A DNA stretch of 27,317 nucleotides from Gemmatimonadaceae bacterium (lineage in GTDB: Bacteria; Gemmatimonadota; Gemmatimonadetes; Gemmatimonadales; Gemmatimonadaceae): the NCBI GenBank assembly GCA_040901985.1, contig JBBDYC010000010.1, positions 47,081 to 74,397 on the forward strand, in the 5' to 3' direction. The position numbers and the translations under genes are program-made. Every line of letters starts with the position of its first letter. Within the stretch, counting starts at the first letter, position 1. The notes under the pieces are model-generated. The model ran no database searches. It saw only the letters and a list, made by a program, of their open reading frames with translations, and had not been told where the DNA came from. Of this stretch, positions 5,779 through 27,317 are shown piece by piece.

Positions 5779-5828
5779 GTCTGCGCTCCGGGTGACACTG
5801 CGAGGGGCCGCTGCTGGGGTCGGACGCG

Positions 5829-5837: not shown

Positions 5838-5843
5838 AGCGGC

Positions 5844-10246: not shown

Positions 10247-10250
10247 GGAC

Positions 10251-10751: not shown

Positions 10752-10755
10752 GCGC

Positions 10756-13700
10756 GTGGCCGTCGCCGTCCCGCGCACGCGCTACCGGACGATCCCGCCG
10801 GAGCTCACCGCCGACGCGCTCGAGCGCGAGGTCGGCGACCGCTGGACGCGGGACGGCGTCTTTGCCGCGTCGCAGGCCGCGCGCGCCGACGCGCCGACCT
10901 GGGTCTTCTACGAAGGCCCGCCCACGGCGAACGGCCGGCCCGGGATCCACCACGTCTTCTCGCGCACGCTGAAGGACCTCTTCTGCCGCCATCGGGCGAT
11001 GACCGGCCACTTCGTCCCGCGGAAGGCGGGATGGGACACGCACGGTCTCCCGGTCGAGATCGAAGTCGAAAAGGCGCTCGGCATCTCGGGCAAGCAGGAC
11101 ATCGAGCGGATCGGCGTCGCCGAGTTCAACCGGCGCTGCCGCGAGAGCGTCTGGACCTACAAGGGCGACTGGGAGCAGCTCAGCGCGCGGATGGGCTACT
11201 GGCTCGACTACGCCGACCCATACGTCACCTACTCGAACGCCTACGTCGAGAGCGTGTGGTGGGCGCTCAAGACGCTGTACACGAAAGGCCTCCTCTACCA
11301 GGGGCACAAGATCCTGCCGTACTGCGCGCGCTGCGGAACGGCGCTGAGTTCGCACGAGCTGGCGCAGGGGTACGAGGACGTCGAGGATCCCTCGGTCTAC
11401 GTCGCGCTCGACCTTGAGGCGAAGGGAGGACGGGGCGGGAAGAAGGTGCGCCGTCGGATCATCGTCTGGACGACGACGCCCTGGACGCTCGTCTCCAACG
11501 TGGCGCTGGCGGTGAATCCGTCGCTCACCTACGTCGAGTTGCGCAAGAAGGCGGTCAAGGACTGGACCATCATCCTCGCCGAGGCGCGCGCGGGGGCGGT
11601 GCTCGGGGCCGACTTCGCGGACCGCTGGGACACGATCGGGACGCTGGCGGGCGCCGACCTCGTCGGCCTGCGCTACCGCCGACCGCTCGACTGGGTGGAG
11701 TACCCGGACACCGGCGCCCACGAGGTGATCGTCGGCGAGGAGTTCGTCTCCGCCGAGGACGGGTCGGGGGTCGTGCATATGGCGCCCGCGTTCGGCGCCG
11801 ACGACTACGCGGCGGCCCAGCGGCACGGGCTCGCCTTCGTCAATCCGGTGGACGCGCGGGGCGAGTTTCCGGCGGCGATGCCGGTCGTCGGCGGCAAGTT
11901 CGTCAAGGATGCCGACGCGGCGATCGTCGAGGAACTCCGTGCACGCGACCAACTCTGGAAGGAGCAGCGGCTCGTCCACTCGTATCCCCACTGCTGGCGC
12001 TGCGGCACGCCGCTGCTCTACTACGCGCGCACGAGCTGGTTCGTGCGGACGACGGCATTCCGCGACGCGATGCTGGCCCGGAACGCCGCGGTGAACTGGA
12101 CGCCGCCCGAAATGGGGTCGGGACGGTTCGGCAGCTGGCTGGAGCACAACATTGACTGGGCAATCAGCCGCGACCGCTATTGGGGCTCGCCGCTCCCGGT
12201 CTGGATCAACGACGCCGACCCGGACGAGGTCGAGGTGATCGGGTCGTACGCCGAGCTCGCGGCGAAGGTGGGGGAGGCGCTGCCGACGGACTTCGACCCG
12301 CACAAGCCGCAGGTGGACACCTACACCTGGCCGGCGCCGAGCGGCACCGGCACGATGCGGCGCGTGAACGAGGTGATTGACGCCTGGTTCGACTCGGGCT
12401 CGATGCCGTTCGCGCAGTGGGGCTACCCGCACCAGGCGGGGAGCGCCGAGCGGCTCGCGCACCACTTCCCGGCCGACTACATCGCCGAGGGGGTGGACCA
12501 GACGCGGGGGTGGTTCTACTCGCTGCTGGCGATCGCGACCGGCCTCGGTGATGCGCTGCCGAACAACGGCGATGCGTCGGCGGCGCCGTATAGGGCGGTG
12601 CTCGTGAACGACCTCGTGCTCGACGCCGCCGGCCAGAAGATGTCGAAGTCGCGCGGCAACACGGTGGACCCGGCGGCGGTGCTGGCGCGCCACGGCGCCG
12701 ACGCGGTGCGGCTCTTCCTGGTGTCGAGCGCGCAGGTCTGGGTGCCGCGGCGGTTCGACGAGGCGGTCCTTCGCGAGACGGCGGGGCGCTTTCTCGTCAC
12801 GCTCCGGAACGTCTACAGCGGGATCTTCGCGCAGTACGCCAACTTCGGCTGGTCGCCGTCGGCGCAGGACCCGCCGCCCGCTGAGCGGCCGGTGCTCGAT
12901 CGCTGGGTGCTGAGCGAGCTGGCGCACGTGGAGCGGTCGGTGGACGCGGCGCTGGAGCGGTTCGACGCCACCGGCGCCGCGCGCACGCTGATGGAGTTCG
13001 TGACGGAGGGCGTCGCCAACTGGTATGTGCGGTTGTCGCGTGCGCGTTTCTATGCGGTGGACGGCGCCGACAACCGCGCCGCATTCGCCACGTTGCACGA
13101 GGTGCTCGTCGTCGTCTCCCGGTTGCTGGCGCCGGTGGCGCCCTACCTGAGCGACTGGATGCATATGGAATTGACCGGGACATCAGTGCATCTTGCGCCC
13201 TTCGCGCGGCGCCCCGGGGCGCCGGCTGACGATGGGCGCGGCCTGCGCGACGCGATGACGGCGGCGCGCACGCTGGCGACGCTCGGCCGTGCGGCGCGCG
13301 AGGAAGCAGGGATCAAGGTGCGGCAGCCGCTCGGCGCGCTGACCTGCGTGGCGCCGGCCGTGACGGCCGAGTGGCAGGTGGTGATTGCGCCGATCGTCGC
13401 CGCCGAACTGAACGTGAAGCAGGTGAGCTTTGCCGATTCGGCGGCGGACTGGGTGCAACTCGGGGGGCGGCCGAACTTCCCCGTGCTGGGGAAGGTGCTG
13501 GGCGGCGCGATGAAGGCCGCCAAGCCGCTGGTCGAGGGACTCGGCCAGGATGCGTTGCGCACGATCGAGCAGGGGGGCAGCGTGGAAGTGGACGTGCCGG
13601 GCCACGGCGCGCTGACGCTTGACGCGTCGCGGGTGTCAATTACCGCGCGTGCCTCGTCGGCGTTCGTGGTGCAGCAGGGGCAGGGACTCTCGGTGGCGCT

Positions 13701-14001
13701 CGATCCGGCGGTGACGCCGGCGCTCCGGGCGGAAGGGATGGCGCGGGAAGTGGTGAGTCGCGTGCAGCGATTGCGGAAGGAGGCCGGCCTCGAGGTGAGC
13801 GACCGGATCCGGCTCGCGGTGGCGGCGCCGGCCGAGGTGCAGGAGGCGCTGCGCGGTCACAGCGCCTGGATGGCGGGTGAAGTGCTTGCGCGGGAGCTCA
13901 TCCTCGGGGAGGAGCTGCCCGCGACCCCAGCGTGGTCGGCGGATGCCGAGGTGGATCTCGACGGGCCGATGGCGCGCATTGCTCTTACCAAGGACAGCTG
14001 A
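10756..14001 (+). CDS. ileS: Isoleucine--tRNA ligase, type 2 (long C-terminus)
   Basis: EGPPTANGRPGIHH, GWDTHGLP, WTTTPWT, HCWRC, DWAISRDRYWG, EGVDQTRGWF, KMSKS; type 2 C-terminal AREVVSRVQRLRK...DRI. Confidence 0.96.
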   Translation: MAVAVPRTRYRTIPPELTADALEREVGDRWTRDGVFAASQAARADAPTWVFYEGPPTANGRPGIHHVFSRTLKDLFCRHRAMTGHFVPRKAGWDTHGLPVEIEVEKALGISGKQDIERIGVAEFNRRCRESVWTYKGDWEQLSARMGYWLDYADPYVTYSNAYVESVWWALKTLYTKGLLYQGHKILPYCARCGTALSSHELAQGYEDVEDPSVYVALDLEAKGGRGGKKVRRRIIVWTTTPWTLVSNVALAVNPSLTYVELRKKAVKDWTIILAEARAGAVLGADFADRWDTIGTLAGADLVGLRYRRPLDWVEYPDTGAHEVIVGEEFVSAEDGSGVVHMAPAFGADDYAAAQRHGLAFVNPVDARGEFPAAMPVVGGKFVKDADAAIVEELRARDQLWKEQRLVHSYPHCWRCGTPLLYYARTSWFVRTTAFRDAMLARNAAVNWTPPEMGSGRFGSWLEHNIDWAISRDRYWGSPLPVWINDADPDEVEVIGSYAELAAKVGEALPTDFDPHKPQVDTYTWPAPSGTGTMRRVNEVIDAWFDSGSMPFAQWGYPHQAGSAERLAHHFPADYIAEGVDQTRGWFYSLLAIATGLGDALPNNGDASAAPYRAVLVNDLVLDAAGQKMSKSRGNTVDPAAVLARHGADAVRLFLVSSAQVWVPRRFDEAVLRETAGRFLVTLRNVYSGIFAQYANFGWSPSAQDPPPAERPVLDRWVLSELAHVERSVDAALERFDATGAARTLMEFVTEGVANWYVRLSRARFYAVDGADNRAAFATLHEVLVVVSRLLAPVAPYLSDWMHMELTGTSVHLAPFARRPGAPADDGRGLRDAMTAARTLATLGRAAREEAGIKVRQPLGALTCVAPAVTAEWQVVIAPIVAAELNVKQVSFADSAADWVQLGGRPNFPVLGKVLGGAMKAAKPLVEGLGQDALRTIEQGGSVEVDVPGHGALTLDASRVSITARASSAFVVQQGQGLSVALDPAVTPALRAEGMAREVVSRVQRLRKEAGLEVSDRIRLAVAAPAEVQEALRGHSAWMAGEVLARELILGEELPATPAWSADAEVDLDGPMARIALTKDS

Positions 14002-14003
14002 CG

Positions 14004-14489
14004 ATGCCGACCCAGAAACCTGCGGGCGACAAGGGAGCGAAGGGAGCGAAGGGCGCGAAGGGCGAGAAAGGCGCGAAGGCCGACACGGGCGAGAAGAAAT
14101 TCAAGCCGCTCCCGAAGAAGCAGATTGCGTACTTCGAGAAGCGACTGCTCGACGAGCGACGGCGCGTGCTCAAGGAGCTCGGGCATTACGACGAGACCTT
14201 CGGCAACACGCCGCAGGGCGCCGACGGCGACCTGAGCGCGTACTCGTTCCATATGGCCGACCAGGGCACCGATGCGATGGAGCGCGAGAAGGCGTTCCTC
14301 TTCGCCTCGAAGGAAGGGCGGTTCCTCTGGCACGTGGACCAGGCGTTGCGGCGCCTCTACCGCACGCCCGACGAGTTCGGCAAGTGCCATCAGTGCGGCG
14401 GCGAGATCGCCCACGAGCGGCTCGACGCGCTGCCGCACGCGCGGTTCTGCATTGACTGCAAGACGCGTGAGGAAGATGGGAAGAAGTGA
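14004..14489 (+). CDS. TraR/DksA C4 zinc-finger protein
   Basis: HMADQGTD coiled-coil tip; CHQC-x17-CIDC with ERLDALP; ATG 2 nt after the ileS stop. Confidence 0.88.
   Translation: MPTQKPAGDKGAKGAKGAKGEKGAKADTGEKKFKPLPKKQIAYFEKRLLDERRRVLKELGHYDETFGNTPQGADGDLSAYSFHMADQGTDAMEREKAFLFASKEGRFLWHVDQALRRLYRTPDEFGKCHQCGGEIAHERLDALPHARFCIDCKTREEDGKK
14031..14075 (+). repeat. Five imperfect 9-bp tandem repeats (AAGGGAGCG-like) encoding (KGA/KGE)5
   Basis: aagggagcg aagggagcg aagggcgcg aagggcgag aaaggcgcg, read directly. Confidence 0.8.
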
Positions 14490-15012
14490 GCCGGGCGGCC
14501 TCTCGCGCGCCCGCGTGCTCGCGGTCGTGGCCGGGATCATCGCCCTCGACGTGGTCACCAAGCTTGTCGCGGTGGACCGGTTGGCGCCGATGCACGTGCC
14601 GCATCGTGTCCTCGGCGAGACGCTGCGGCTGACGCTCGTCTACAACCCCGGCGCGGCGTTCGGCCTGCACCTCGGCGCGTGGTCGCGGCCCGCCTTCATC
14701 GTGCTGACGTTCGTCGCGCTCGGGGTCGTCTGGTCGCTGTATCGGTCGAGCGCGCCGACGGCGCGGCTGCGGGTGCTGGCGCTCGCGGCGGTCGCCGGCG
14801 GGGCGATTGGCAACCTGATTGACCGGGTGCGGTCGGCGCGCGGCGTGGTGGACTTCGTGGACATCGGCGTGGGCAGCTGGCGGTGGCCGACGTTCAACGT
14901 GGCCGACTCCGCGGTGACGCTCGGCGCGTTGACGCTGGCGGTCGTGCTCTGGCGCGAGGACGCGGTGGCGGCGCGCCGCGCGCAGGGTGCTGAACGCGCG
15001 CCGCCGTCCTGA
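14476..15012 (+). CDS. lspA: Lipoprotein signal peptidase II
   Basis: DVVTK, NPGAAFG, GGAIGNLIDR, VVDF, FNVADS; ATG 14476 with GAGG upstream. Confidence 0.95.
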   Translation: MGRSEPGGLSRARVLAVVAGIIALDVVTKLVAVDRLAPMHVPHRVLGETLRLTLVYNPGAAFGLHLGAWSRPAFIVLTFVALGVVWSLYRSSAPTARLRVLALAAVAGGAIGNLIDRVRSARGVVDFVDIGVGSWRWPTFNVADSAVTLGALTLAVVLWREDAVAARRAQGAERAPPS

Positions 15013-15013
15013 G

Positions 15014-16012
15014 ATGCGCGACGGGCCGCTGGGTCCCGGGCGCCACCGGTTCACCGCCGGCGAGTCGGAGACCGAACGGCTCGACCTCCTCGTGGCGCGG
15101 CTGACGGGACTCTCGCGGACGCAGGCGGCGACGCTGATCGCGACGCAGAAGGTGGAAGTGGACGGCCGCGTCGAGCGCGCGAGCTTCCGCCCGCCGGCCG
15201 GCGCGCGCGTGGAGGTGGAGATCGCGCCGCCGTCGGGACGGACGATCGTCGGCGAGGACATCCCGTTGCGGATCGTGTTCGAGGACGACGACCTCGTCGT
15301 GGTGGACAAGCCGGCGGGGATGGTCGTCCACCCGGCGCCGGGCAACTGGAGCGGCACGCTCGTCAATGCCTTGATGGGGCGCGGGCAGGGCCTCGCGGCC
15401 GGGGCGGCGCCGGAGCGCGCCGGACTCGTGCATCGGCTCGACAAGGAGACATCCGGCCTGCTCATCGTCGCCAAGTCCGACCGCGCGCTGACGGGGTTGA
15501 GCGCGGCGATTGGCGCGCGGCAGGTCACGCGGCGCTACGCCTGCCTCTGCTGGGGCCATCTCGCGGAGGATCGCCTGACGGTGGATCGCCCGATCTCGCG
15601 CGACCCGAACGACCGCACGCGGATGGCGGCGCGGCCCGAGGGACGCGCGGCGCGGACCGACTTCCTTCGGCTCGCGCGCTTCGAGAGCGTGGACCTCCTG
15701 CGGGCGCACCTCCACTCGGGGCGTACGCACCAGATCCGGGTGCACTTGATGGCCATCGGCCACCCGGTGGTGGGCGACGACAGCTACGGAGGTGGCGGGG
15801 GCCGCCGCCTCGTCGGGCTGGCCCCGAAGCGACATTTTCTCCACGCGGCCTGGCTCGTCTTCAAGCACCCGGTGTCGGGGGATACGCTGGACCTCCGCTC
15901 TCCCTTGCCGGACGATCTCAAGCGGTCGCTCGCGCAAGTGGCGGGAGATCCGACGCTGTTTGCCCACCCCGACCCGCTGGAGTACTTTGACTTCTATAGA
16001 GCGACCGACTGA
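15014..16012 (+). CDS. rluD: RluA-family pseudouridine synthase with S4 domain (RluD-like)
   Basis: S4-like RLD...SR; DKPAGMVVHP; catalytic HRLDKETSG; GRTHQIRVH; HPVVGD; LHA. Confidence 0.92.
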   Translation: MRDGPLGPGRHRFTAGESETERLDLLVARLTGLSRTQAATLIATQKVEVDGRVERASFRPPAGARVEVEIAPPSGRTIVGEDIPLRIVFEDDDLVVVDKPAGMVVHPAPGNWSGTLVNALMGRGQGLAAGAAPERAGLVHRLDKETSGLLIVAKSDRALTGLSAAIGARQVTRRYACLCWGHLAEDRLTVDRPISRDPNDRTRMAARPEGRAARTDFLRLARFESVDLLRAHLHSGRTHQIRVHLMAIGHPVVGDDSYGGGGGRRLVGLAPKRHFLHAAWLVFKHPVSGDTLDLRSPLPDDLKRSLAQVAGDPTLFAHPDPLEYFDFYRATD

Positions 16013-16448
16013 GACGGTGGGCGGTGGCGAGGGCCGGCGCTACCTGTTGGCGCGGGCGGCGGACCAGCGGGTCGCGTTCCCGTTGGACGCGGTGCGGGAA
16101 ATCATCCCGCCCCGTGTGCTCACGCGGCTGCCGGGGGCCGGGGCGTGGGTTCTCGGCCTGCTCAATCTGCGCGGGTTGGTGCTGACGGTGGTGGATCTCA
16201 CCGTGCGGTTCGGCGGGACGCCGGGCGACTCGCCCTCGATTGTGGTGCTTGAGATGGACGGCCGGCTGCTCGGCGTACAGGTAACGGCGGTGTCGGCGGT
16301 GTCGGCGTCGGCGGACGGGACCGAGGCCGCGGTGGACGACGCCCGGTCGGCCGAGGGGCTGGTGCGCGGGCTGGTGGAGGTGCCCGGTGGGACGGCATTG
16401 GTGATTGACGTGAAGGCCCTGCAGCACGCGGCGCTCGCCGCGGTCTGA
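15987..16448 (+). CDS. cheW: CheW coupling protein (start is TTG 15987 or GTG 16017)
   Basis: VREII, TRLPGAGAWVLGLLNLRGLVLTVVDL; GGAG just upstream of TTG 15987. Confidence 0.88.
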   Translation: MTSIERPTETVGGGEGRRYLLARAADQRVAFPLDAVREIIPPRVLTRLPGAGAWVLGLLNLRGLVLTVVDLTVRFGGTPGDSPSIVVLEMDGRLLGVQVTAVSAVSASADGTEAAVDDARSAEGLVRGLVEVPGGTALVIDVKALQHAALAAV

Positions 16449-16489
16449 GCAGGGCGACAACTCGACCTTTCGACAGACTGGGGGACGGC

Positions 16490-16852
16490 GTGGCTCCGAC
16501 GGTGCTCATCTGCGATGACGCGATCTTCATGCGCACCATGGTCGGCGACATCCTGCAACAGGCGGGATTCGAGATCGTGGGGGAGGCGGAGACCGGAACG
16601 CAGGCCGTCGAGCGCTACAAGGCGCTGCGTCCGGACCTCGTGACGATGGATATCGTGATGCCCGATATGGGCGGGATCGACGCGGTCCGCGAGATCACGA
16701 AGTTCGACCCGAACGCGCGCGTGTTGATGTGCAGCGCGATGGGCCAGCAGTCGCTGGTCGTCGAGGCGATCCAGGCCGGGGCCAAGGACTTCGTGGTGAA
16801 GCCGTTCCAGCCGAGCCGCGTGCTGGAAGCGGTCCAGCGGGTCCTTGGCTGA
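16490..16852 (+). CDS. cheY: Single-domain response regulator CheY
   Basis: ICDDAIFMR, phosphoacceptor region DLVTMDIVMP, MCSA, KPF; 120 aa; resembles Bacillus/Thermotoga CheY. Confidence 0.92.
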   Translation: MAPTVLICDDAIFMRTMVGDILQQAGFEIVGEAETGTQAVERYKALRPDLVTMDIVMPDMGGIDAVREITKFDPNARVLMCSAMGQQSLVVEAIQAGAKDFVVKPFQPSRVLEAVQRVLG

Positions 16853-16891
16853 CCGCGCGGCCGCCCCCGAGCGCCGTTCCCGGCCCCCCGC

Positions 16892-18874
16892 GTGGACCCG
16901 TCCCGCTACGCCGAACTCTTCCGCACCGAGAGTCGCGAGCAGCTCTCGGCACTGAACCGCGCCCTGCTGGCGATCGAGCAGGGCGAGGCGTCGCGTGACC
17001 AGGTGGACGCCATCTTCCGCGGCGTGCACACCATCAAGGGGATGAGCGCGACGATGGGGTACGGCGCCGTGGCCGAGTTCTCGCACGAGCTCGAATCGCT
17101 GCTCGACAAGGTGCGCGAGGGCGAGCAGGGCATCTCCCCCGACCTGATGGACGCGCTCTTCGCGGCGGCCGACGCGCTGGAGGACGGGGTCGAGCACGCG
17201 CAGGAAGGGAACGCGATGAGCGAGGCGATGCAGCGCGCGCTGGAACGGCTGCACGACGTCGCCGGCGGCCGCTCGACGGGGGAGTTCCGCGTGTTGCGGC
17301 CCAACGCGCTGGTGGCGGCGCCGGTCGAGGCGGGCGCGGCGCTGGTCGGCGAGGGGACGCTCGTCCACGTGACGCAGCAGGCGGCGGCGCTGCTGCCGGG
17401 CGTGCGCGCCTTCATGGCGATCCAGCGCCTGCGCGACCTCGGCGAGGTGCTCGGGTGCGACCCGAGCGTCGAGCGGTTGCAGGCGGCGACCGCGCCGCAG
17501 GCGTTCACCGTGCGGCTGCGGACGGCGGCGGGTCCGGCGGAGATCGAGCGCGCGGTGCGGAGCGCGGGCGACGTGGCGACGGTCGTGGTGGACGAGCGGA
17601 TTGACCCCGCGGCGGTGGCGGCGGCGGTGGTCGAGCCGCCGGGTGCGACCGGGGACGACGTGCCGCGTCGGAGGGCGAGCGACGCGCTCGGGATGAGCGA
17701 CACCCTCGGGCCGGCCGAGCGAGGGCAGGCGCCGCGCGCCCGCCACGTGCGGATCGAACTCGCGCGGCTCGACGCGCTGCTCAACCTCGTCGGCGAGTTG
17801 GTGATCGTGCGTGGGCGGCTCCAGGCCCTCACCGGCAAGTTGCCCGACCCGGCGCTCCACGAGGTGATGGACGACGCGACCGCGCTGATCGGTGACCTGC
17901 AGCGCGAGATCATGACGAGCCGCCTCGTGCCGGTGGGGCAGGTCTTCGACCGCTTCCCGCGCCTCGTGCGCGACGTGGCGCGCCAGCTCGGCAAGGACGT
18001 GCTCTTCAGCATCGAGGGGAAGGACATCGAGATTGACCGCTCGGTGCTCGATGAGATCGGCGAGCCGGTGGTGCATCTGCTGCGCAACGCGGTGGACCAC
18101 GGGCTCGAGCTCCCGGCGGTCCGCGAGGCGGCGGGGAAGCCGCGCGCCGGCCGCCTGATCCTCAGCGCGCATCGCGACCGGAGCGCGGTGGTCGTCACGG
18201 TGCGCGACGACGGGCGGGGGATTGACCGGGCCAAGGTGCTCGAACGCGGCCTCGCGATGGGGATCGTCGCGCCGGGCACCACACAGCTCGACGACGACGC
18301 CCTGATGCGCTGCATCGCCCATCCGGGATTCTCGACCTCCGACCAGGTGACCGACATCTCGGGGCGCGGCGTCGGCGTGGACGCGGTGCTGGCGCGGACG
18401 CGGGCGGTCGGCGGCACGGTGGAGTTGCGGACGGTGCCGGGCGCCGGCACCACGATGTCCCTGCGGCTCCCGGTGACGCTGGCGATCGTGCGGGCGCTGC
18501 TGGCCCGTGTGGGGAGCGAGTGTTACGCGCTCCCGCTGACGCACGTGCGAGAGACGCTGGAACGCGGGCCGGCGCTGATCCGCCCCGTGCAGGGGCGCGA
18601 GATGCTCGTGCTGCGGGACGAAGTGCTGCCGCTGCTGCGGCTGCGCGAGGTGGTGCGGCTCGGCGCGCAGGCGGCGTCGCCGATGGAGGAGATCGTGGTG
18701 ATCGAGCGCGGGGACCGGCGGGCGGGGCTCGTCGTGGATGAACTCACCGGCCAGGAGGATATCGTGGTGAAGGCGTTCGACTCGCCGCGGGATGGACTGA
18801 CCCTGTTCAGCGGCGCGACCATCCTCGCCGACGGTGCCCCGGCGCTGATCGTGGACATCGGGAGCCTGCTGTGA
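16892..18874 (+). CDS. cheA: Chemotaxis histidine kinase CheA (P1-P5)
   Basis: Hpt FRGVHTIKG; P2-like VRAFMAIQRLRDLGEV; LDALLNLVGEL; HLLRNAVDHG; DDGRG; PGFST; SGRGVG; C-terminal CheW-like domain. Confidence 0.96.
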   Translation: MDPSRYAELFRTESREQLSALNRALLAIEQGEASRDQVDAIFRGVHTIKGMSATMGYGAVAEFSHELESLLDKVREGEQGISPDLMDALFAAADALEDGVEHAQEGNAMSEAMQRALERLHDVAGGRSTGEFRVLRPNALVAAPVEAGAALVGEGTLVHVTQQAAALLPGVRAFMAIQRLRDLGEVLGCDPSVERLQAATAPQAFTVRLRTAAGPAEIERAVRSAGDVATVVVDERIDPAAVAAAVVEPPGATGDDVPRRRASDALGMSDTLGPAERGQAPRARHVRIELARLDALLNLVGELVIVRGRLQALTGKLPDPALHEVMDDATALIGDLQREIMTSRLVPVGQVFDRFPRLVRDVARQLGKDVLFSIEGKDIEIDRSVLDEIGEPVVHLLRNAVDHGLELPAVREAAGKPRAGRLILSAHRDRSAVVVTVRDDGRGIDRAKVLERGLAMGIVAPGTTQLDDDALMRCIAHPGFSTSDQVTDISGRGVGVDAVLARTRAVGGTVELRTVPGAGTTMSLRLPVTLAIVRALLARVGSECYALPLTHVRETLERGPALIRPVQGREMLVLRDEVLPLLRLREVVRLGAQAASPMEEIVVIERGDRRAGLVVDELTGQEDIVVKAFDSPRDGLTLFSGATILADGAPALIVDIGSLL

Positions 18875-19503
18875 GCGCGGCGGACCTTCCGCCGGACGAC
18901 GTCCGGTCCCTGTCGGCCAACGCGATTGACGCGTTGCGCGAGGTGGCGAACATCGGGGCCGGCCACGCCGCCACCGCGCTCTCGCAGATCACCGACCAGC
19001 GGATCATGATCAGCGTGCCGCGGATCAACATCGTGACGCTCGAGGAGATCCCCAACCAGATCGCCGAGCGCGAGGAGCCGGTGGCGGCGATCCAGATGCG
19101 CATCCACGGCGACCTGACCGGGGTGACGCTGCTCGTCTTCCCGCAGCCGATCGCCCTCCGCGTCGCCGGCCTGATGATGCGGAAGCCGGTGACCGAGCTC
19201 GACGCGATCGCCGAGTCGGCGCTCAAGGAGGCGGGGAACATCCTCAGCGCGGCCTACCTGAACGCGCTGGCCGAATTCCTCCAGATGCGGATCCTCAACT
19301 CGCCGCCCGCCCTCGCGGTGGATATGAGCGACGCGGTCCTGACCTCGACCTACGTCGAGGTCGGCGAGGGATCGGAGTACGTTTTCTGCGTGGAGAGCGA
19401 GTTCCAGCTCGCCAACGACACGCATCCCCTGCGCGGCTTCTTCCTGTTGCTGCCGGATCCGAAGAGCCTGCAGGCCATCCTTCGCGCGATCCGCCTCGCG
19501 TGA
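18871..19503 (+). CDS. cheC: CheC phosphatase
   Basis: Two D/S-x3-E-x2-N sites: DALREVANIGAGHAATALS and SALKEAGNIL. Confidence 0.92.
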   Translation: MSAADLPPDDVRSLSANAIDALREVANIGAGHAATALSQITDQRIMISVPRINIVTLEEIPNQIAEREEPVAAIQMRIHGDLTGVTLLVFPQPIALRVAGLMMRKPVTELDAIAESALKEAGNILSAAYLNALAEFLQMRILNSPPALAVDMSDAVLTSTYVEVGEGSEYVFCVESEFQLANDTHPLRGFFLLLPDPKSLQAILRAIRLA

Positions 19504-22223
19504 CCGCGCCGGCGTCCCCCTCCCCGATGTCCGAACGGGACCGCGAGGTCCTGCGGGGCTTCGCGCGCCGGATTGACGCGGCGGACGCGGGGGCGCACAA
19601 CAACCTCGGCGTCCTCTACTTCACCAAGGGCTTCCACGAGGAGGCGGTGGGCGCGTTCACCCGGGCGCTCGAGCTCGACCCGAAGATGCAGGTGGCGCAG
19701 CGCAACCTCGAGATCGCCTACTTCAACACGGGCTATTACGACCGGCGGGTGGCCGAGTTGCGCGAACGGCTCCGTGCGCGACCCGACGACCGCGACGCGC
19801 GGTGGGAGCTCGGCCGCGCCTTCGCCCTGCTCGGGCAGGCGGAGGACGCGATTCCCGAGTTCCAGGCGCTCCTCGCGCTGCGGCCGGGCGACGTCGGCGC
19901 GATGATCCAGCTCGGACTCGCCGAGAAGGCGGCGGGACGGCTGGGGACGGCGCTCTCCTGGTTCCGCACCGCGCTCGGGCGCGATCCGCAGAGTGCGCTC
20001 CTCCATTGCTACGTCGGCGAGGTGCTCTACAACCAGGGCGCCTTCGACGACGCGCTGGCGTCGCTCCAACGGTCCATCCAGCTCAACCCCGACCATCCCG
20101 AGGCGCACTTCCTCCTCTCGTTCGTGCTCGGCGACATGGGGCGGCACGAGGACGCGCAGAAGGCGGGGAAGCGCGCCGTGCAACTCAACCCGGCGCTCTC
20201 CCGCGCCCAGGCCAACCTCTCGCTCGACGAGTACGACCCGAAGAAATACGAGGCGCTCGTGCCGGGACGTCAGGCCCAGCGCTCGATGGCGCAGATGACG
20301 ATCGCCGAGGGCGAGTCGCTGGCGCACTACACGCTGGGCCACGCCTTCCGGCAGCAGGGGCTGATGGACGAGGCGATGCGCGAATACCGGATGGCGCTGG
20401 AGCGGGGCGAGGATCGCGCGCTGGCGGTCCAGGCGATCGCCGAGCTGCACCTCCTGCAGAAGGAGCCGGAGCCGGCAATCGCGCTCTACGACGAGCTCCT
20501 GAAGGACCGCGCCGACAGCCCCAAGCTGTGGAACGAGCGCGGCGTGGCGCTGCACCAGACGGGCGACCACGCGGGCGCGGCGGAGAGCTACCGGCGCGCC
20601 CTCGAGGCCGACGCGACCTACGCGATTGCGCGCAACAACCTCGCCGTGGCGCACTTCCACGCCGGCCGCTCCGACGAGGCGGTGGACGAGTTCCGCGAGG
20701 CGCTCGCGCAGTCGCCGGGCTTCGTGAAGGCGCGGCTCAACATCGCCCTCCTGCTCGTCCGCGGGAAACGCTACCAGCTCGCGCTCGAGGCGTACCGGTA
20801 CGTGCTCGAGCACGACCCCGACCAGGCGATCGCCTGGAACGGCGTCGGGATGGTGCTGGCCGAACTGCGGAAGTTCGAGGAGGCGCGGACGGCGTTCGCG
20901 CGGGCAATCCAGTCCGACCCGGACTACGCCGAGGCGCACTACAACCTGAGCTTTACGCTCTCCAACCTCGGCGACTACCCGGGCGCGCTCCGCGAGACGA
21001 AGCGGGCGTTGGAGATCGACCCGTACTACGTGGCGCAGAGCTTCGCGCTGGCGATAGACCTCGAGTACGAGGATCCCGACCTCACCGTCGTCCCCGACCT
21101 CGGTGGCGAGCAACGGATGAGCACGGGGGTGGACACCTTCACCTTCGATTCGGGGCTGCTCGACACGATCTTCAAGCAGTTGGAGCCGGAGGTCGCGGCC
21201 GAGGACGCGGCGCCGGAGGCGGTCAGCGGCGACCCCTACGCGCTCGCCGTGGACTACCTGTCGAAGGGCCTGGTGGACCGGGCGATGTCCGAAGTGCGGC
21301 GGGCGATGGGGCGCGGTGCCGACCCGGTGCAGGGCGACGTCCTGCTCGGCGAGGCGTTCGGCCGGCAGGGGGCGTGGGGCGACGCGCTCGAGCGCTTCGA
21401 GGCGGCGCGGCGCGTGGCGCCGGACCATCCCGAGGCGCTGCGCGGCGAGACGCAGGCGCTGCTCAGCCTGGGCCGCGGCGGCGACGCGGTCGAGCCGGCC
21501 GAGCGGCTGCTCGCGGTGCTCCCCGACGATGCCGATGCGTTGATGCTGATCGCGACGGCGCGGTTCGAGGGGGGCAACGCCGAGGGCGCGCTGGAAGTGC
21601 TCGACCGGGCACGGCGGGTGGCGCCCGAGCGCGCCGAGGTGCTCCGCGGGATTGGCAACGTGACGCGGGCGCTGGGCAACCTCGACGCGGCGATTGCCGC
21701 GTACCGGCACGCGCTCACGCTCGACGGCGATTTCGCGGCCGTGCGCTACGACCTCGCGCAGCTGCTGCTCCAGCGCGGCGGGTTCGTCGAGGCCGAGCAG
21801 GAGTTGCTCGCCGCGCTCGACGCGGTGCCGACCTATGCCGACGCCACGCTCGCCCTCGCCGCGCTGCACCGCGCCCAGGGCCGGCCGGCCCAGGCGCTGA
21901 CGCTGCTGATCGAGTTCCTCGAGCGCGACCCGTACAGCTTCGACGGCCTCGTCGCGCTCGGGGAACTGCTGCTCGAGCAGGGACGTCCCGACGACGCCGC
22001 GATCGCCTTCCAACGCGTGTTGCGGTTCGACCCGGCGCACGTCGGCGCGATCTTCCATCAGGGCCTCCTCCTGGCGGCGCAGAAGCGCTACCGCGAGGCG
22101 GTTGCCTGCTTCCGGCGGGTGGCGGAAATCGAGCCGAACGGCGAGTTCGCGCGCCGCGCGTTCCGCGAGGCGCGGTCGGTCCAGCATCGCCTCGAAGGCG
22201 GCGACGGCGAGGCGGGGGACTGA
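19500..22223 (+). CDS. Large cytoplasmic tetratricopeptide-repeat protein (907 aa; alternative ATG 19527)
   Basis: Many 34-aa TPR units (AHNNLGVLY...ALELDP; AHYNLSFTL...ALEIDP); no signal peptide; GTGA overlap with cheC. Confidence 0.9.
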   Translation: MTAPASPSPMSERDREVLRGFARRIDAADAGAHNNLGVLYFTKGFHEEAVGAFTRALELDPKMQVAQRNLEIAYFNTGYYDRRVAELRERLRARPDDRDARWELGRAFALLGQAEDAIPEFQALLALRPGDVGAMIQLGLAEKAAGRLGTALSWFRTALGRDPQSALLHCYVGEVLYNQGAFDDALASLQRSIQLNPDHPEAHFLLSFVLGDMGRHEDAQKAGKRAVQLNPALSRAQANLSLDEYDPKKYEALVPGRQAQRSMAQMTIAEGESLAHYTLGHAFRQQGLMDEAMREYRMALERGEDRALAVQAIAELHLLQKEPEPAIALYDELLKDRADSPKLWNERGVALHQTGDHAGAAESYRRALEADATYAIARNNLAVAHFHAGRSDEAVDEFREALAQSPGFVKARLNIALLLVRGKRYQLALEAYRYVLEHDPDQAIAWNGVGMVLAELRKFEEARTAFARAIQSDPDYAEAHYNLSFTLSNLGDYPGALRETKRALEIDPYYVAQSFALAIDLEYEDPDLTVVPDLGGEQRMSTGVDTFTFDSGLLDTIFKQLEPEVAAEDAAPEAVSGDPYALAVDYLSKGLVDRAMSEVRRAMGRGADPVQGDVLLGEAFGRQGAWGDALERFEAARRVAPDHPEALRGETQALLSLGRGGDAVEPAERLLAVLPDDADALMLIATARFEGGNAEGALEVLDRARRVAPERAEVLRGIGNVTRALGNLDAAIAAYRHALTLDGDFAAVRYDLAQLLLQRGGFVEAEQELLAALDAVPTYADATLALAALHRAQGRPAQALTLLIEFLERDPYSFDGLVALGELLLEQGRPDDAAIAFQRVLRFDPAHVGAIFHQGLLLAAQKRYREAVACFRRVAEIEPNGEFARRAFREARSVQHRLEGGDGEAGD

Positions 22224-23203
22224 TGGCCATCGAGGGCCCACTCAAGGAACTCGGCATCCACGACGTCTTCCAGCTGCTCGACCTGAGCCGGAAGACGGGG
22301 ACGCTCACCGTCACGTCGGCGCTGCGCGACAACGAGGGTCGGGTCTGGTTCGAGAACGGCAAGGTGATCGCGGCGACCATCAAGTCCAATCCGCACCGCA
22401 TCGGCGACCTGCTGGTCCGGTCGGGGCGGCTGACCGACGCCGACCTGCTCCGGGTCCGCGAGCTGCAGCAGCAGGGCGACCGGCGGCGCGTCGGCGAGAT
22501 CCTCGTGGCGCTCGAGTTGGTGACGCCGCGCGAGATGGAGCGGCAGATGCGCCTGCAGATTGAGGCGGTAGTGTTCGAGCTGATGTCGTGGTCGGAGGGG
22601 CATTTCCGGTTCGACGAGGGGTTGGACGACGACGTGCTGCGCGAGGCGAGCGCGCCGATCGCCACCGCGTCGCTGCTGATGGAGGGCGCGCGACGGATTG
22701 ATGAGTGGTCGCGGATCGCCGACCGGGTGCCGAACCTCTCGGTGATTCCCGACCTGGCGCCGGTGGAGTCCGGGGATCCGGCGCTGCTCGACCTGCTGCC
22801 GCAGGAGTGGAAGGTGCTGTCGTGCATTGACGGCCGGACCGATCTCCGGACGATCTCGGGGATGCTGGCGATGAGCGAGTTCGACGTGGCGCGGATGGTG
22901 TACGGGATGGTGAGCACGGGCGTGGTGCTGCTGCGCCAGCCGCCGCGCGCGAGCGCGCCGGCGCCGCTGCCGCGCGGCACCCAGCCATCCGGCCACGCGA
23001 CGCCACTCGGCGTGCTGCCGGCTCCGGTGACGAACGGCGCGGCGGCGTTCCGTCGCGGCGCCTTCGCCGAGGGGATCGCCAGTTGGGCCGGCTTCCTCGA
23101 GTCCACGCCGGCGTACGCGGGCGCGGCGGTGATCCGCGAGGGCATCGCGGTGGCGTCGCGGCTGCACCAGATCCTCGCGCGGGAGGTGCCCGATGAGCGC
23201 TGA
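22223..23203 (+). CDS. DUF4388 (PatA_N-like) protein with an internal MshEN-like motif
   Basis: TGATG coupling at 22221-22225. MAIEGPLKELGIHDVFQLLDLSRKTGTLTV...GRVWFENGKVIAA, WSEGHFRF and LLMEGARRIDEW are typical of DUF4388 proteins. Confidence 0.85.
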   Translation: MAIEGPLKELGIHDVFQLLDLSRKTGTLTVTSALRDNEGRVWFENGKVIAATIKSNPHRIGDLLVRSGRLTDADLLRVRELQQQGDRRRVGEILVALELVTPREMERQMRLQIEAVVFELMSWSEGHFRFDEGLDDDVLREASAPIATASLLMEGARRIDEWSRIADRVPNLSVIPDLAPVESGDPALLDLLPQEWKVLSCIDGRTDLRTISGMLAMSEFDVARMVYGMVSTGVVLLRQPPRASAPAPLPRGTQPSGHATPLGVLPAPVTNGAAAFRRGAFAEGIASWAGFLESTPAYAGAAVIREGIAVASRLHQILAREVPDER

Positions 23204-24032
23204 GGAGATCCGCACGCTGAGCGAGACGCTGGCGGCCGATCCGGGGAGTCTCGTCTTCCTGCCGCTGGCCGAGGCGCTGCTGGCGCGGCACGACCTCGCG
23301 CACGCGGCGCGGGTGGCGCGTCGCGGCGCGGAGCGGCACGCCGATCGCGCCGATGCGCACGACCTCGTGGCGCGGATCGCACTCGCGCAGGGCGACGCCG
23401 CGGCGGCCGAGGCGGCGTGGCAGGCGGTGCTCGCGCGCGTCCCCGACTTCGGCGCCGCGCACCGCGGCCTCGGCTTCCTCCGCTACCAGCAGGGCCGGTA
23501 CGACGAGGCCGAGCGGCATCTGGGGGTGGCACGCGCGGCGAGCCCGGACGACCCGGCGTTGGAATCGGCGTGGCAGGCGGTGCAGGCGGCGCGCGCGGCG
23601 CGGGGCGGCGGCGAGCCGCCGACCGTGCCGTCTCCGGCGCCGTGGGCGGCGCCGCCGGTGGGCGCCGCCGGTGCGGCGACGCTGTTCGACGGCCTGCTTG
23701 GCGGGAGCGCGCAGGTGGCGCTCCTCCTCGACGCCGACGGCCTGGTCGTCGCCGGCCGCTACGAGACTGCGGCCGGGGAGGACCTCGGGGCGGTAATCGG
23801 GGCGCACCTCTCCGGCGTCAGCGACGAGGCGGCGCGGGCGATGCGCCACTTCGGGCTCGGCGCGTGGACCCGGATTGCGCTCGAGAGCGAGGCGGCGACC
23901 GTGGCGATGGCGCCGGCGGGCGACGCGATCGCGCTCGTCGCGGCGCCGCGCGAGGTACCGCTCGGCCTCGTCCGGCGGACGCTCGAGCAGTGCGTCGCCC
24001 AGGCGGAGCGTTGGCTCGGGGGTGCCGCGTGA
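23193..24032 (+). CDS. TPR plus Roadblock/LC7 fusion protein
   Basis: N-terminal TPRs (DPGSLVFLPLAEAL; AHRGLGFLRYQQGRYDEA), Pro-rich linker, C-terminal Roadblock-like ALLLDADGLVVA...LGLVR; GGAGG SD. Confidence 0.8.
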   Translation: MSAEEIRTLSETLAADPGSLVFLPLAEALLARHDLAHAARVARRGAERHADRADAHDLVARIALAQGDAAAAEAAWQAVLARVPDFGAAHRGLGFLRYQQGRYDEAERHLGVARAASPDDPALESAWQAVQAARAARGGGEPPTVPSPAPWAAPPVGAAGAATLFDGLLGGSAQVALLLDADGLVVAGRYETAAGEDLGAVIGAHLSGVSDEAARAMRHFGLGAWTRIALESEAATVAMAPAGDAIALVAAPREVPLGLVRRTLEQCVAQAERWLGGAA

Positions 24033-24370
24033 GCGCGTTCGGCGCCCTGGTCGGCGCGGTCACGCGGCATCGCGGCGTGACCGCGTGCCTCGTCGTGGCG
24101 GAGGAGGACGGCATCGTCGTGGACGGGACGGCGCAGATCGGCGTGGACACCGCCGCCTTTGCCGCGCTGACGGCGTCGCTTTACCGCAAGGCGGCGCGCG
24201 CCGCGGCCGCCGCCGGCTTCGGCGCGGTCAGTTTCTGCGAGCTCGAGGCGGAGGACGGGCGGGTGTTCGCCGCCGGACGCAACGGCCTCGTCATCGTCGC
24301 CGTCGCCGAACCGCGGGTCAACCTCGGGCTGGTGCGCGTCGAACTCCTGCGCGCGGCGGGGGGCCTGTGA
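24029..24370 (+). CDS. Roadblock/LC7 domain protein (MglC/MglB-like, 113 aa)
   Basis: GTGA overlap; GVTACLVVAEEDGIVV, AALTASL, NLGLVRVEL. Confidence 0.82.
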   Translation: MSAFGALVGAVTRHRGVTACLVVAEEDGIVVDGTAQIGVDTAAFAALTASLYRKAARAAAAAGFGAVSFCELEAEDGRVFAAGRNGLVIVAVAEPRVNLGLVRVELLRAAGGL

Positions 24371-24840
24371 TCCGCCACTCGCTCGCGGTCGGCTGGGCCG
24401 ACGCGCCGCTGAAGCGGTTCGTCGATGACGCGCGGCTGCAACTCGCGATCCTGATGCAATCGAGCGGGCAGGTCCTGGCCCAGGTGGGCTTCAAGCGGTC
24501 GCTCGACGTGCAGACCGCCTGCGCGCTCTCGGCGGCGATCAATGCGTCGGCCGAGCATCTCGGCACGATGGTGGACGGGACGCCGTTCCGCGGCCTGCAC
24601 TACGGGGGGAAGACCCGCCAGATGTACCTCGGACAGGTGCCGCTCAGCGGGACGATGCTCCTCGTGCTCGCCGTCTTCGACACCGAGAGTTCGCTGGGGA
24701 TCGTCCAGCTCTACGTCAAGGAACTGCAGGCGGCCGCCGCGGCGGCAGCGCCGGCACCGACCGACGACGCGCCGGCGCTCGCCGAGAACTTCGAGCAGGA
24801 CCTGAATCGCAACCTCGCTCAACTGTTCGGGAGGGGCTGA
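24367..24840 (+). CDS. mglB: MglB-like Roadblock GAP protein (157 aa)
   Basis: GTGA overlap; GQVLAQ, LHYGG, AVFDTESSLGIVQL and an acidic C-terminal helix (FEQDLNRNLAQLF) resemble Myxococcus MglB; directly upstream of mglA. Confidence 0.78.
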   Translation: MIRHSLAVGWADAPLKRFVDDARLQLAILMQSSGQVLAQVGFKRSLDVQTACALSAAINASAEHLGTMVDGTPFRGLHYGGKTRQMYLGQVPLSGTMLLVLAVFDTESSLGIVQLYVKELQAAAAAAAPAPTDDAPALAENFEQDLNRNLAQLFGRG

Positions 24841-24881
24841 TGCCCGTCACGGTCCTCCACCATTCACCGACCCCACCGTGA
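24840..24881 (+). other. 13-codon mini-ORF (MPVTVLHHSPTPP) bridging mglB and mglA
   Basis: Its ATG overlaps the mglB stop (TGATG), GGAGG lies 5 nt upstream, and its TGA overlaps the mglA GTG (GTGA). Confidence 0.35.
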
Positions 24882-25477
24882 GCCTCGTCAACTACGCGAC
24901 CCGCGAGATCACCTGCAAGATCGTCTACTACGGCCCGGGGCGGTCGGGGAAGACGACCAACCTGCATTACATCCACGGCCAGGTGCCGGGCGACCGCAAG
25001 GGGCAGATGGTCTCGCTCGCCACGCAGACCGACCGGACGCTCTTCTTCGACTTCCTGCCGATCGACCTCGGCGCGATCTCGGGATTCACCACGCGCTTCC
25101 AGCTCTACACGGTGCCCGGCCAGGTCTACTACCAGACGACGCGCAAGCTGGTGCTGCAGGGTGCCGACGGGGTGGTCTTCGTCGCCGACAGCCAGTCGCG
25201 CCAGCTGCAGGAGAACATCGAGTCGTTCCAGGACCTCCACGCGAACCTCGCCGAGCAGGGCGTGGACGCGCGGACGATGCCGCTCGTGATCCAGTACAAC
25301 AAGCAGGACCTCCCGCCGGAACTGATCACGCCGGTGCCGGAGCTCGAGGAGGCGCTCAACTTCCGCGGCGTGCCGTCGTTTGCCGCCGACGCCCTGCACG
25401 GCCCGGGGGTGTTCGAGACGCTGCGCGGCATCTCCGAGCTGGTGCTGCGCAAGCTCAGCGCCGGCCGAGGCGGCTGA
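24878..25477 (+). CDS. mglA: MglA family small Ras-like GTPase
   Basis: REITCKIVYYGPGRSGKTTNL, TDRTLFFDF (intrinsic Arg), TVPGQ, DGVVFVADS, NKQD. Confidence 0.95.
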   Translation: MSLVNYATREITCKIVYYGPGRSGKTTNLHYIHGQVPGDRKGQMVSLATQTDRTLFFDFLPIDLGAISGFTTRFQLYTVPGQVYYQTTRKLVLQGADGVVFVADSQSRQLQENIESFQDLHANLAEQGVDARTMPLVIQYNKQDLPPELITPVPELEEALNFRGVPSFAADALHGPGVFETLRGISELVLRKLSAGRGG

Positions 25478-25478
25478 C

Positions 25479-27317
25479 GTGCGCCTGGATCCGCGGCTGA
25501 CGTTCGAGCGGTTGGTGGTCGGGGCGGCGAACCGGATGGCCGCCGCCGCCGCGCGCGCGGTGGCCGAGGCGCCGGGCACGACCTACAACCCGCTCTTCAT
25601 CTACGGCGGATCGGGCCTCGGCAAGACGCACGTGCTCACCGCGACGGCGCATCTGCTCACCGCGCTGCAGCCGGCGGCCGAGGTGCTGGCGATGACGCTC
25701 GACGAGTTCTCCGAGCAGTTTCACGCCGCGGTGAGCGCCGGCGAGACGACGTCCTTCGGCGGCCGCCTGGCACGGGTGGACCTTCTCCTGCTCGACGACC
25801 TGCAGTTCGTGACCGGCCGGCGGGAGATGCAGGCCGAGCTGCTGCGGCTGTTCACGACGATGCAGGAGGAGGGCCGCCAGATCGTCTGCGCGTGCGACCG
25901 GCCGCCGGCCGAGATCGCCGATGTGGACGAACGGCTGATCGGCCGCCTGGCCGGGGGCCTCGTGGTGGACGTCGGCCTCCCCGAATACGAGACGCGCGTC
26001 GCGATCCTCCGCGCCGCCTGCGCCGAGCGGGAGATCGAGGCGCCCGAGGAGACGCTCGCCGCGCTCGCCGAGCGCGAAGTCGCGAGCGTGCGCGAGCTCC
26101 AGGGGCGCCTCAACGCCTGGGTCGCGCAGGACGCGATGGGCGCGCGTCCGGGTGCCGCACCGACGCCGACACCGGGCGACACCGCCGCGCTGCGGCCGTC
26201 GGGCGAGTTCCAGAGCTTCCTCTCCGACGTCGCGGCGGTGGTGCAACAGCAGGTCGAGTCGTGGCAGGTGCGTCTGCGCGAGGTGATCGCCTACTGGAGG
26301 GGCGAGGGATACCGGACCGCTGTACTGGAGCGGGCGCTTGGCCTGCCGAAGGACCCCGACGTCCAGGCGCTGGTGGCGATGTACGTGCAGGCGGTGGACC
26401 ACCTGCGCGCGCTCGAGGCCGAGGCGACGACGGTGGACCGCGCGCTTGGCGGCCACGAGCTCTTCCGCGACCCCGAACGGCTGAAGGAGGCGGAGGACCT
26501 GCTCGAGAAGGCGCTCGCCGGCGAAATGCCGCCTGGCGGCCCGAACCCCGCGTTCACGCGCGACGGCTTCGAGCTGGGCACGGCCAACCAACTCGCGGTG
26601 CATTCGGCCGACGCGGTGATCGCGGCGCCGGCGACGCGCTACAACCCGCTCCTCATCACCGGCCCGAGCGGGGTCGGGAAGACCCACCTCCTGCACGCAA
26701 TCGGGAACGCGATCGCGATCGCGTCGGAGGGGCGGATTGCCGTCGCCTGCGTGCACGCGCAGACGCTGGTGGACGAGTTGATCGCGGCAATCCAGGGCGG
26801 GACGGTGGAACGGTGGCGGTCGCGCTACCGCGCGGCCGGCGCGCTGTTGGTGGACGACGTCCAGTTCCTCGCCGGCAAGGAACGCACGCAGGACGAGTTC
26901 TTTTTCGTCTTCAACGCGCTCGCCGAGGAGGGCAAGCAGATCGTCCTCTCGAGCGACCGGCTGCCATCGGAGATCCCCGACCTGGCGGCGCGGCTTCGGT
27001 CGCGCTTCGAGGGCGGGCTGGTGGCGGAGATACAGTCCCCGGACCGCGCACTGCGCGAGAAGCTCGCGTCGCGCTTCCTGGCCGGCCTTGGCCGGCCGGC
27101 GCCGCCGGAACTGCTCGACGTGGTCTGCGACTCGCCGGTGCAGAGCGTGCGCGAGCTGATCGGGCTGGTGAATCGGCTCGCCGCGGCGGCCGACGCGCGC
27201 GGGATGGGTCTCGACGCGGCGCTGGCGCGCGACGAACTCGGACTCGGCGCCCCCGCGCCCGCCCCCCAGGCGCCCCCCGCCGCCCCCCCCCCCCCGCCCC
27301 CCCCCCGCCCCCCCCCC
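25479..27317 (+). CDS. 3'-truncated protein with two tandem DnaA/Hda-type AAA+ domains (about 600 aa or more); absent from the ORF track
   Basis: GTG 1 nt after the mglA stop; hand translation shows the frame open to the window end. Module 1: YNPLFIYGGSGLGKTH, LLLDDLQF, CDRPP, ERLIGRL, SVRELQG. Module 2: YNPLLITGPSGVGKTHLL, LLVDDVQFLAGKERTQDEF, SDRLP, RLRSRFEGGL, SVRELIG. Confidence 0.88.
   Translation, partial: MRLDPRLTFERLVVGAANRMAAAAARAVAEAPGTTYNPLFIYGGSGLGKTHVLTATAHLLTALQPAAEVLAMTLDEFSEQFHAAVSAGETTSFGGRLARVDLLLLDDLQFVTGRREMQAELLRLFTTMQEEGRQIVCACDRPPAEIADVDERLIGRLAGGLVVDVGLPEYETRVAILRAACAEREIEAPEETLAALAEREVASVRELQGRLNAWVAQDAMGARPGAAPTPTPGDTAALRPSGEFQSFLSDVAAVVQQQVESWQVRLREVIAYWRGEGYRTAVLERALGLPKDPDVQALVAMYVQAVDHLRALEAEATTVDRALGGHELFRDPERLKEAEDLLEKALAGEMPPGGPNPAFTRDGFELGTANQLAVHSADAVIAAPATRYNPLLITGPSGVGKTHLLHAIGNAIAIASEGRIAVACVHAQTLVDELIAAIQGGTVERWRSRYRAAGALLVDDVQFLAGKERTQDEFFFVFNALAEEGKQIVLSSDRLPSEIPDLAARLRSRFEGGLVAEIQSPDRALREKLASRFLAGLGRPAPPELLDVVCDSPVQSVRELIGLVNRLAAAADARGMGLDAALARDELGLGAPAPAPQAPPAAPPPPPPPRPPP
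27249..27317. repeat. C-rich low-complexity contig end; Pro/Ala linker and/or artefact
   Basis: Runs of up to about 13 C at the window end. Confidence 0.55.

Follow-up and report, generated by a model that had tools for sequence, protein, structure and literature searches.

What is a protein with two DnaA-type ATPase modules doing in a chemosensory gene cluster, directly behind the gene for a small GTPase? The question arises from a 27,317-nucleotide stretch of a Gemmatimonadaceae bacterium (GCA_040901985.1, contig JBBDYC010000010.1, G000:C10:47081-74397), hereafter the window, in which all coordinates given below are on the forward strand. A DnaA-derived tandem ATPase gene (25479..27317) lies at its 3' end and extends beyond the window end across a gap of 10 Ns. 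Our answer, which we consider probable, is that this gene encodes a DnaA paralogue that has left replication and would serve as a nucleotide-switched adaptor for a PATAN-MshEN-TPR protein encoded in the same chemosensory/MglA locus. Comparative sequence analysis demonstrates the architecture of the family, the absence of DnaA domain IV, the constant coupling to the PATAN-TPR gene, the survival of two short motifs (A and B) on their own, and the complementary conservation of the two modules.

The gene starts with GTG at 25479, one base past the mglA stop codon, and is followed by 613 stop-free codons to the window end. An earlier note on this DNA had described a single open reading frame that opens at DnaA domain III and holds two DnaA-type modules, and both the frame and all motifs lie where that note put them. 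Module 1 (DnaA domain III and lid, 25485..26135) and module 2 (DnaA domain III, 26532..27248) have their Walker A motifs at 25605-25628 and 26661-26684, Walker B at 25782-25799 and 26844-26858, the sensor-I DR at 25890-25901 and 26949-26960, the arginine-finger motifs RLIGR at 25932-25946 and RLRSR at 26991-27005, and the sensor-II VREL at 26085-26105 and 27144-27164, respectively. The window protein thus keeps every motif in both modules; this does not extend to the family, in which sensor I, sensor II, or the entire lid of module 2 is frequently missing. As had been anticipated, the Pfam scan called Bac_DnaA twice (E 7.5e-100) and left both DnaA_N and Bac_DnaA_C without a match, with the same outcome for three full-length relatives. 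The genome's sole domain IV match belongs to a canonical dnaA, which also encodes domains I and III and is followed by dnaN on contig C2, so that the expected separate dnaA-dnaN locus is present.

Between the modules, about 140 amino acids had been read as a linker in place of domain IV. Domain IV is indeed absent, but the stretch is not a plain linker: a variable Pro-rich disordered segment (26136..26204; predicted local distance difference test score, pLDDT, <50) leads into motif A, a conserved short helix (26205..26255) recognized by pattern in 33/35 sequences, and then into a folded helical unit of ~90 aa without a Pfam family (26256..26522). Module 2 is followed by a spacer with a poly-C run at the gap edge (27249..27317). 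Relatives supplied the C-terminus that the window lacks: at full length they comprise 570-750 aa (closest, ~636 aa) and end not in domain IV but in motif B, a C-terminal 27-residue Trp motif that lies just past the gap and precedes the PATAN-MshEN-TPR gene. The order is therefore module 1, motif A, helical unit, module 2, motif B. Positions 24904-27251 are matched with 0 differences by a public contig that may derive from the source sample and that ends before the poly-C run. Since relatives carry an Ala-rich spacer in place of this terminal poly-C/proline run, which the public contig does not reach, the run is probably artefactual. The PATAN-TPR gene is itself interrupted by a further 10-N gap edged by poly-G/poly-C (G000:C10 ~75800-75850; L001 ~5800-5850), and contig C16 is also poly-G-ended.

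Is the gene real? Repeated module losses, a few frameshifted copies (L015, L055, L075, L076, and L087), and the gap at the 3' end would suit a decaying dnaA duplicate or an assembly artefact, with the small open reading frames (mini-ORFs) described below retained only for translational coupling. However, 37/40 loci from other genomes align contiguously over both modules (one is broken by a contig end and two are weak alphaproteobacterial single-domain matches). Together with the identical public contig, this rules out the misassembly between the modules against which the earlier note had warned. The family is moreover conserved across a class, with 34-89% identity and 52 invariant columns in 26 sequences. 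We regard decay or artefact as already largely refuted and scarcely credible.

The family is thus real, and it belongs to neither DnaA nor Hda. The protein shares fold and motifs with DnaA domain III of Bacillus subtilis (8bv3/8btg), T. maritima (2z4r), and A. aeolicus (1l8q) (best match E 1.6e-51), and passes the DnaA model TIGR00362 solely via summed stretches. Unlike DnaA, the family has no domains I, II, or IV, possesses zero, one, or two modules depending on the lineage, and carries the helical unit and two motifs in addition; its gene resides in a Che/Mgl locus instead of at the origin and coexists with the canonical dnaA. It also departs from the near-universal presence of DnaA: with the queries used, neither a family member nor its PATAN-TPR partner was found in 86/301 Gemmatimonadota genomes, which makes it unlikely that the gene is required for replication.

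Hda and HdaA are closer in architecture, as they are likewise DnaA-clade AAA+ proteins with an arginine finger and without domain IV, and NCBI labels some relatives of the tandem protein 'DnaA/Hda family protein'. An Hda equivalent of the phylum, which would inactivate ATP-DnaA on the sliding clamp, is nevertheless very improbable. The protein scores 137.7 bits against the TIGR03420 cut-off of 194.8 (the single-module form, 90.5) and is nearer to DnaA; it begins with domain III and carries no clamp motif at its N-terminus, and a loose pattern for that motif matches 2/35 sequences in non-canonical form. The tandem build, the signalling locus, and the existence of mini-proteins do not fit an Hda either.

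The earlier note had also asked where each module comes from. Modules 1 and 2 each form one group (support 100/98 and 100/99), lie jointly on one side of a branch (96/95), and together adjoin the Gemmatimonadota DnaA (92/96, not starred) in a tree of 57 rows out of 195 extracted domains; a midpoint-rooted FastTree was not used for rooting. The two modules share 34% identity, and they are 44% and 38% identical to host-type DnaA. This fits an origin in which the lineage's own dnaA was duplicated and the copy then doubled internally, with the qualification that long branches may pull.

Modelling of a full-length relative (pLDDT 88; predicted template modelling score, pTM, 0.50) gave confident folds for both domain-III modules and for the helical unit, and the model superposes on B. 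subtilis domain III (8bv3) with a root-mean-square deviation (rmsd) of 1.5 Å over 219 columns. In this monomer model, confidence is low in motifs A and B, as would be anticipated if these bind a partner. For single residues we used B. subtilis numbering, taken from an ungapped alignment, and compared 35 selected sequences, 33 of which have module 2. The accessible text of PMC6669920 assigns I190 and K222 to single-stranded DNA (ssDNA) binding and R202, R206, F218, H231, R264, L269, G317, and R321 to the filament interface; that of bioRxiv 2022.03.18.484894 identifies R264 as the arginine finger and adds T225 to the ssDNA-binding residues.

Module 1 retains K157 (35/35), D214 (35/35), F218 (31/35), D248 (34/35), R313 (32/35), and G317 (31/35). 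R202 is kept in 17/35 sequences and R206 is lost family-wide, being outside the four commonest residues at its position; in the window protein, module 1 has also lost the equivalents of R202, I190, K222, T225, and R321. Module 2 has the opposite profile: R202 (33/33), R206 (30/33), R260 (33/33), R264 (31/33), and L269 (33/33) are kept, and F218 (6/33), D248 (14/33), R313 (20/33), and G317 (15/33) are weak. Dividing the residues into two faces and labelling them as Walker and sensor I/II positions, as we presume they should be, conservation in the alignment is complementary, with ATP-face residues in module 1 and the arginine-finger face in module 2.

Module 2 also moderately keeps the ssDNA-binding residues I190 (23/33), K222 (18/33), and T225 (23/33), all three of which have equivalents in the window protein. 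Along with its retained filament-interface residues and the position of the modules beside the Gemmatimonadota DnaA, by which surfaces could be compatible, this suggests a coupler of cell cycle and polarity, whose module 2 would dock on, cap, or co-polymerize with the DnaA filament or bind ssDNA, and whose motifs A and B would tether it to PATAN/Mgl. Replication state could then steer polarity, or the reverse. We consider such a coupler unlikely: at least 10 genomes have kept motifs A and B while deleting the ATPases, there is no DnaA-box match in the 25 kb around the gene and no linkage to dnaA/dnaN, and similar fusions without domain IV occur in proteins named as or resembling Thermoplasmata, and archaea use Orc1/Cdc6 according to the available part of PMC3984812.

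If the gene has left replication, its neighbourhood should reveal what it serves instead. The inter-module piece was found in 199/301 Gemmatimonadota genomes, a set that includes, for this tally only, four unpublished genomes. Among 40 genome-collection loci, 38 are close relatives, of which 37 are titled Gemmatimonadota and one Planctomycetota; this last contig (L017; 75% identity, same gene order) is probably misbinned, and the two weak alphaproteobacterial matches (L042 and L043) were left out of the synteny count. NCBI assigns one relative to Pseudogemmatithrix spongiicola. A PATAN(DUF4388)-MshEN-TPR gene lies directly downstream of the ATPase gene in 63/63 loci, the stop codon of the one mostly overlapping or adjoining the start codon of the other, and mglA lies directly upstream in 59/63 (two loci are without upstream DNA and two have rluD instead).

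Genomes without a match to the inter-module piece (linker-negative) repeat the association. The helical-region profile matches 1/80 of them, and a PATAN-TPR orthologue occurs in 16/102 (15/80 and 1/22), with a family member just before it in 16/16. Ten of these are mini-proteins (nine read directly, one by profile) and one is a degenerate single module; the others have both modules minus the helical unit (one), are divergent two-module forms (two), or are split by contig ends (two). A mini-protein profile gave 0 matches in 27 of the 86 genomes without partner.

The position behind mglA invites the reading that the protein is tied directly to the neighbouring MglA, as effector or regulator of this GTPase, all the more as 9/9 genomes with an mglA orthologue, among 80 tested, have a family member. 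But mglA is gone from the locus in nine cases that keep the family member and its partner (L109, L110, L198-L202, L208, and L209), with no mglA orthologue found in six of these nine genomes. In L109, L110, L198, and L209, the gene with both ATPases persists where mglA, mglB, and the che genes are lost. An MglA effector is therefore quite improbable; judged by gene order, the constant partner is the downstream PATAN-TPR gene and not mglA, which can be lost. The earlier idea of an initiator-clade ATPase repurposed for polarity accordingly holds in that it fits the Che/Mgl locus, and needs amending in that the fixed partner is the PATAN-TPR protein and the modules are dispensable. Most of the Gemmatimonadales genomes tested, also those that lost the cluster, carry a second mglA paralogue (~60% identity). 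In one small genome of the same genus (G272, locus L207) the cluster has decayed: mglA is degenerate, and CheA, the ATPase gene, and the PATAN-TPR partner are all absent; the PATAN-TPR match in this genome is the upstream paralogue in that cluster and was not counted. Genome G088 likewise has no match for CheA, the ATPase gene, or the PATAN-TPR partner.

What remains when the ATPases are lost? In 10 genomes without ATPase modules, the gene is reduced to a mini-protein of 60-73 aa that consists of motif A and motif B only. Differences between mini-ORFs fall mainly at third codon positions in 5/5 pairs, and the closest pair has 7/7 synonymous changes, so that the mini-proteins are, by this codon signature, under purifying selection. 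Both this bias and the retention of an internal motif whose isolation needs two separate deletions are at odds with decay. In a tree of 31 of the 38 aligned PATAN-TPR partners, mini-proteins arose at least twice, and L192 and L199 were reduced separately. One-module forms are scattered among two-module ones in this tree, which makes the tandem form probably ancestral. An ancestral one-module form was dropped, as a two-module member nests between one-module members.

In L192, a short tandem repeat (9988-10092) between the mini-ORF and the PATAN-TPR gene interrupts the stop-start coupling. In the partner genes of L193-L196, L200-L202, and L208, the 53-aa MshEN insert has been cut precisely out of the PATAN domain, and in their clade both ATPases and CheD are missing from the locus as well. 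That MshEN and the ATPases go together seemed to be a repeated pattern (8/9 cases), which was rejected as such, as the MshEN-less mini lineages are one clade (100/99). P0306, an apparent fusion of the tandem ATPase with DUF4388, was judged an artefact and left unused, as its DUF begins mid-domain after a broken motif B.

In the adaptor reading that we prefer, motifs A and B would dock on the PATAN-TPR protein, and module 2 would contribute its arginine-finger face to the ATP site of module 1, whether in the same molecule or in another, in the manner of adjacent DnaA protomers. The resulting ATP-dependent assembly, an optional switch, could cluster or time the PATAN output. Cyclic di-GMP (c-di-GMP) might exert control through the partner's MshEN insert; the partner's c-di-GMP motif is above the NCBIfam cut-off in L037. 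The output may be a pilus motor, as the source genome, which is 99.97% complete, encodes PilB/PilT-family ATPases (six T2SSE-family ATPases above cut-off) and gave no FliG match. The accessible text of bioRxiv 2021.06.11.447907 reports that PATAN domains bind PilB1 and PilC in Synechocystis, and names DUF4388 as PATAN.

Several observations weigh against this adaptor. The pTM of 0.50 leaves the docking of the modules undefined, and the division of labour is partial, since R264 occurs in both modules (32/35 and 31/33) and K157 is mostly kept in module 2 (30/33). Motif A is degenerate in some members (2/35 by pattern; G264). The EE of motif B overlaps the likely ribosome-binding site of the next gene, by which part of the conservation of motif B, and the coupling of the genes, may be translational; its Trp and EK positions do not overlap that site. 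MshEN and the ATPases were lost together in just one event, and MshEN persists in one of the mini-protein lineages. The genomes are kin and not independent samples, so that the counts reflect few events and are not statistics. Finally, the fusions of helical repeat and DnaA domain that we turn to now are no more than presumably archaeal.

Where else does the helical unit occur? Its profile matches 464 representatives; among the 150 listed are 29 giant proteins with 4-28 copies of the unit. As a reciprocal check, given that the giant proteins were originally found with the helical-unit profile, a repeat profile seeded from one of them ranked the ATPase gene top of ~17,300 reading frames in the source genome (18.8 bits; next, 11.7; reversed controls, ≤6.6), and HHalign of the helical unit against the repeat gave 98.4%. 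In a fold search no match stood out (best hit EbhA, Z 5.7, rmsd 3.8, 91 aligned, level with unrelated bundles), and there was no usable Atlas match. Of 20 clusters of unit-bearing proteins looked up, two bear the name Thermoplasmata, one that of Ca. Wallbacteria, and one that of Methylacidiphilaceae. P0122, P0124, P0131, and P0141, one of them named Ca. Wallbacteria, are 2300-3100 aa long and consist for the most part of 14-28 copies of the unit. The giant helical-repeat proteins are probably archaeal.

Five of the 29 giant repeat proteins also carry DnaA domain III. More widely, 28 selected proteins join domain III to other domains, and domain IV was found in 0/28; the helical unit is present in 18/28, and other joins are to MshEN (with two modules), DUF835 with HEAT repeats, zinc ribbons, or a T2SSE ATPase. 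P0288, P0289, and P0294 (1867-1994 aa) show another, distinct tandem architecture with MshEN, domain III, a long helical region, and a second domain III, again without domain IV, and P0310 (806 aa; NCBI name Thermoplasmata archaeon) combines DnaA domain III with a T2SSE-family secretion/pilus ATPase. These fusions (P0135, P0139, P0380, P0310, and P0294 types) resemble the tandem family in domain III and some in MshEN or in having two modules. They differ in that each is one large polypeptide, with as many as 11 repeats or with zinc ribbons, DUF835, or T2SSE, and they are not a described system. The available part of PMC5847659 lists DUF835 for Thermoplasmata.

Pfam calls no PATAN domain in the repeat-plus-DnaA fusions, and the PATAN-like reading of P0135-type N-termini was made by eye. 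The P0380 N-terminus, for which a search found one relative, resembles DUF2226/PatA_N with Thermoplasmatota clusters nearest, a lead only, as scores are <0.9 and TM is 0.44-0.47. A metagenome scan for the context of the fusions returned canonical DnaAs (domain IV in 78/80 loci, the repeat in 0), which served only as tree outgroups. In the best tree the fusion ATPases fall among other DnaAs, and a common origin with the tandem modules is not rejected (approximately unbiased test, p 0.22). It is possible, though doubtful, that DnaA domain III was co-opted both in Gemmatimonadota and, in parallel, in Thermoplasmata that replicate without DnaA, as a PATAN-linked ATP switch with a shared helical repeat and two-motif docking whose filament/ssDNA surface reports the state of DNA or DnaA to the pilus/polarity machinery.

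Has such a family been seen before? Searches aimed at the tandem ATPase family in the literature outside subscription journals listed no paper that describes it, and a word search for the mini-protein gave no match. The MglA-MglB-SgmX system of Myxococcus and the PATAN regulators PixE/PixG of Synechocystis share MglA, Roadblock, TPR, and PATAN genes with our locus, and no DnaA-type ATPase is described for them in the accessible portions of the sources. The PATAN-TPR partner is not simply SgmX, as SgmX is described as TPRs only in the part of PMC7668184 available; the idea that SgmX carries DUF4388 was not borne out (0 occurrences in the papers searched). The accessible text of PMC4316618 places group 1 MglA beside PATAN genes, includes for G. 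aurantiaca the row 'PATAN>MglA>-PATAN>', whose dash may be the tandem ATPase gene, and does not mention DnaA; that of PMC11580455 mentions M. xanthus PATAN proteins only in passing.

The DnaA ATPase core is known from replication initiation and its regulation, helicase loading, and transposition. Class-wide reuse in a chemosensory/polarity locus, together with the archaeal-looking fusions, would, if true, be a new job for the initiator clade and might link replication state directly to cell polarity. With a natural deletion series (two, one, and no modules) and a mini-protein of ~60 residues available, both the partner and what the ATPases do can be tested directly. Members are routinely mislabelled 'chromosomal replication initiator', which inflates dnaA counts.

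The most likely role of the surrounding cluster is to direct type IV pili or cell polarity. It comprises CheW (15792..16448; Pfam, start codon uncertain), a CheY-type receiver (16490..16852; Pfam), CheA (16892..18874), CheC (18871..19503), and a long TPR protein (19500..22223), the last three called by Pfam and NCBIfam. These are followed by a first PATAN (DUF4388) protein (22220..23203) with a weak c-di-GMP motif match, a TPR and Roadblock protein (23193..24032; Pfam), a Roadblock/LC7 protein (24029..24370; Pfam), an MglB-like protein (24367..24840; a weak NCBIfam match far below cut-off), and the small GTPase (24878..25477; Pfam Arf match), which we take to be of the MglA type from the earlier note and from the motifs of the protein. 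Past the gap follow the ATPase C-terminus, PATAN(DUF4388)-TPR, CheR, CheD, CheB, two CheW, and a TPR gene. The source genome also encodes five MCP domains. Read by eye (window 9548-18874 and G000:C10 past 74397), the cluster is flanked by yggS-divIVA-ileS-lspA-rluD upstream and by a tRNA-like stretch, a TPR gene, and mraW downstream, with ftsQ/ftsA/ftsZ-like genes farther downstream, and this genomic position is retained even in shrunken clusters.

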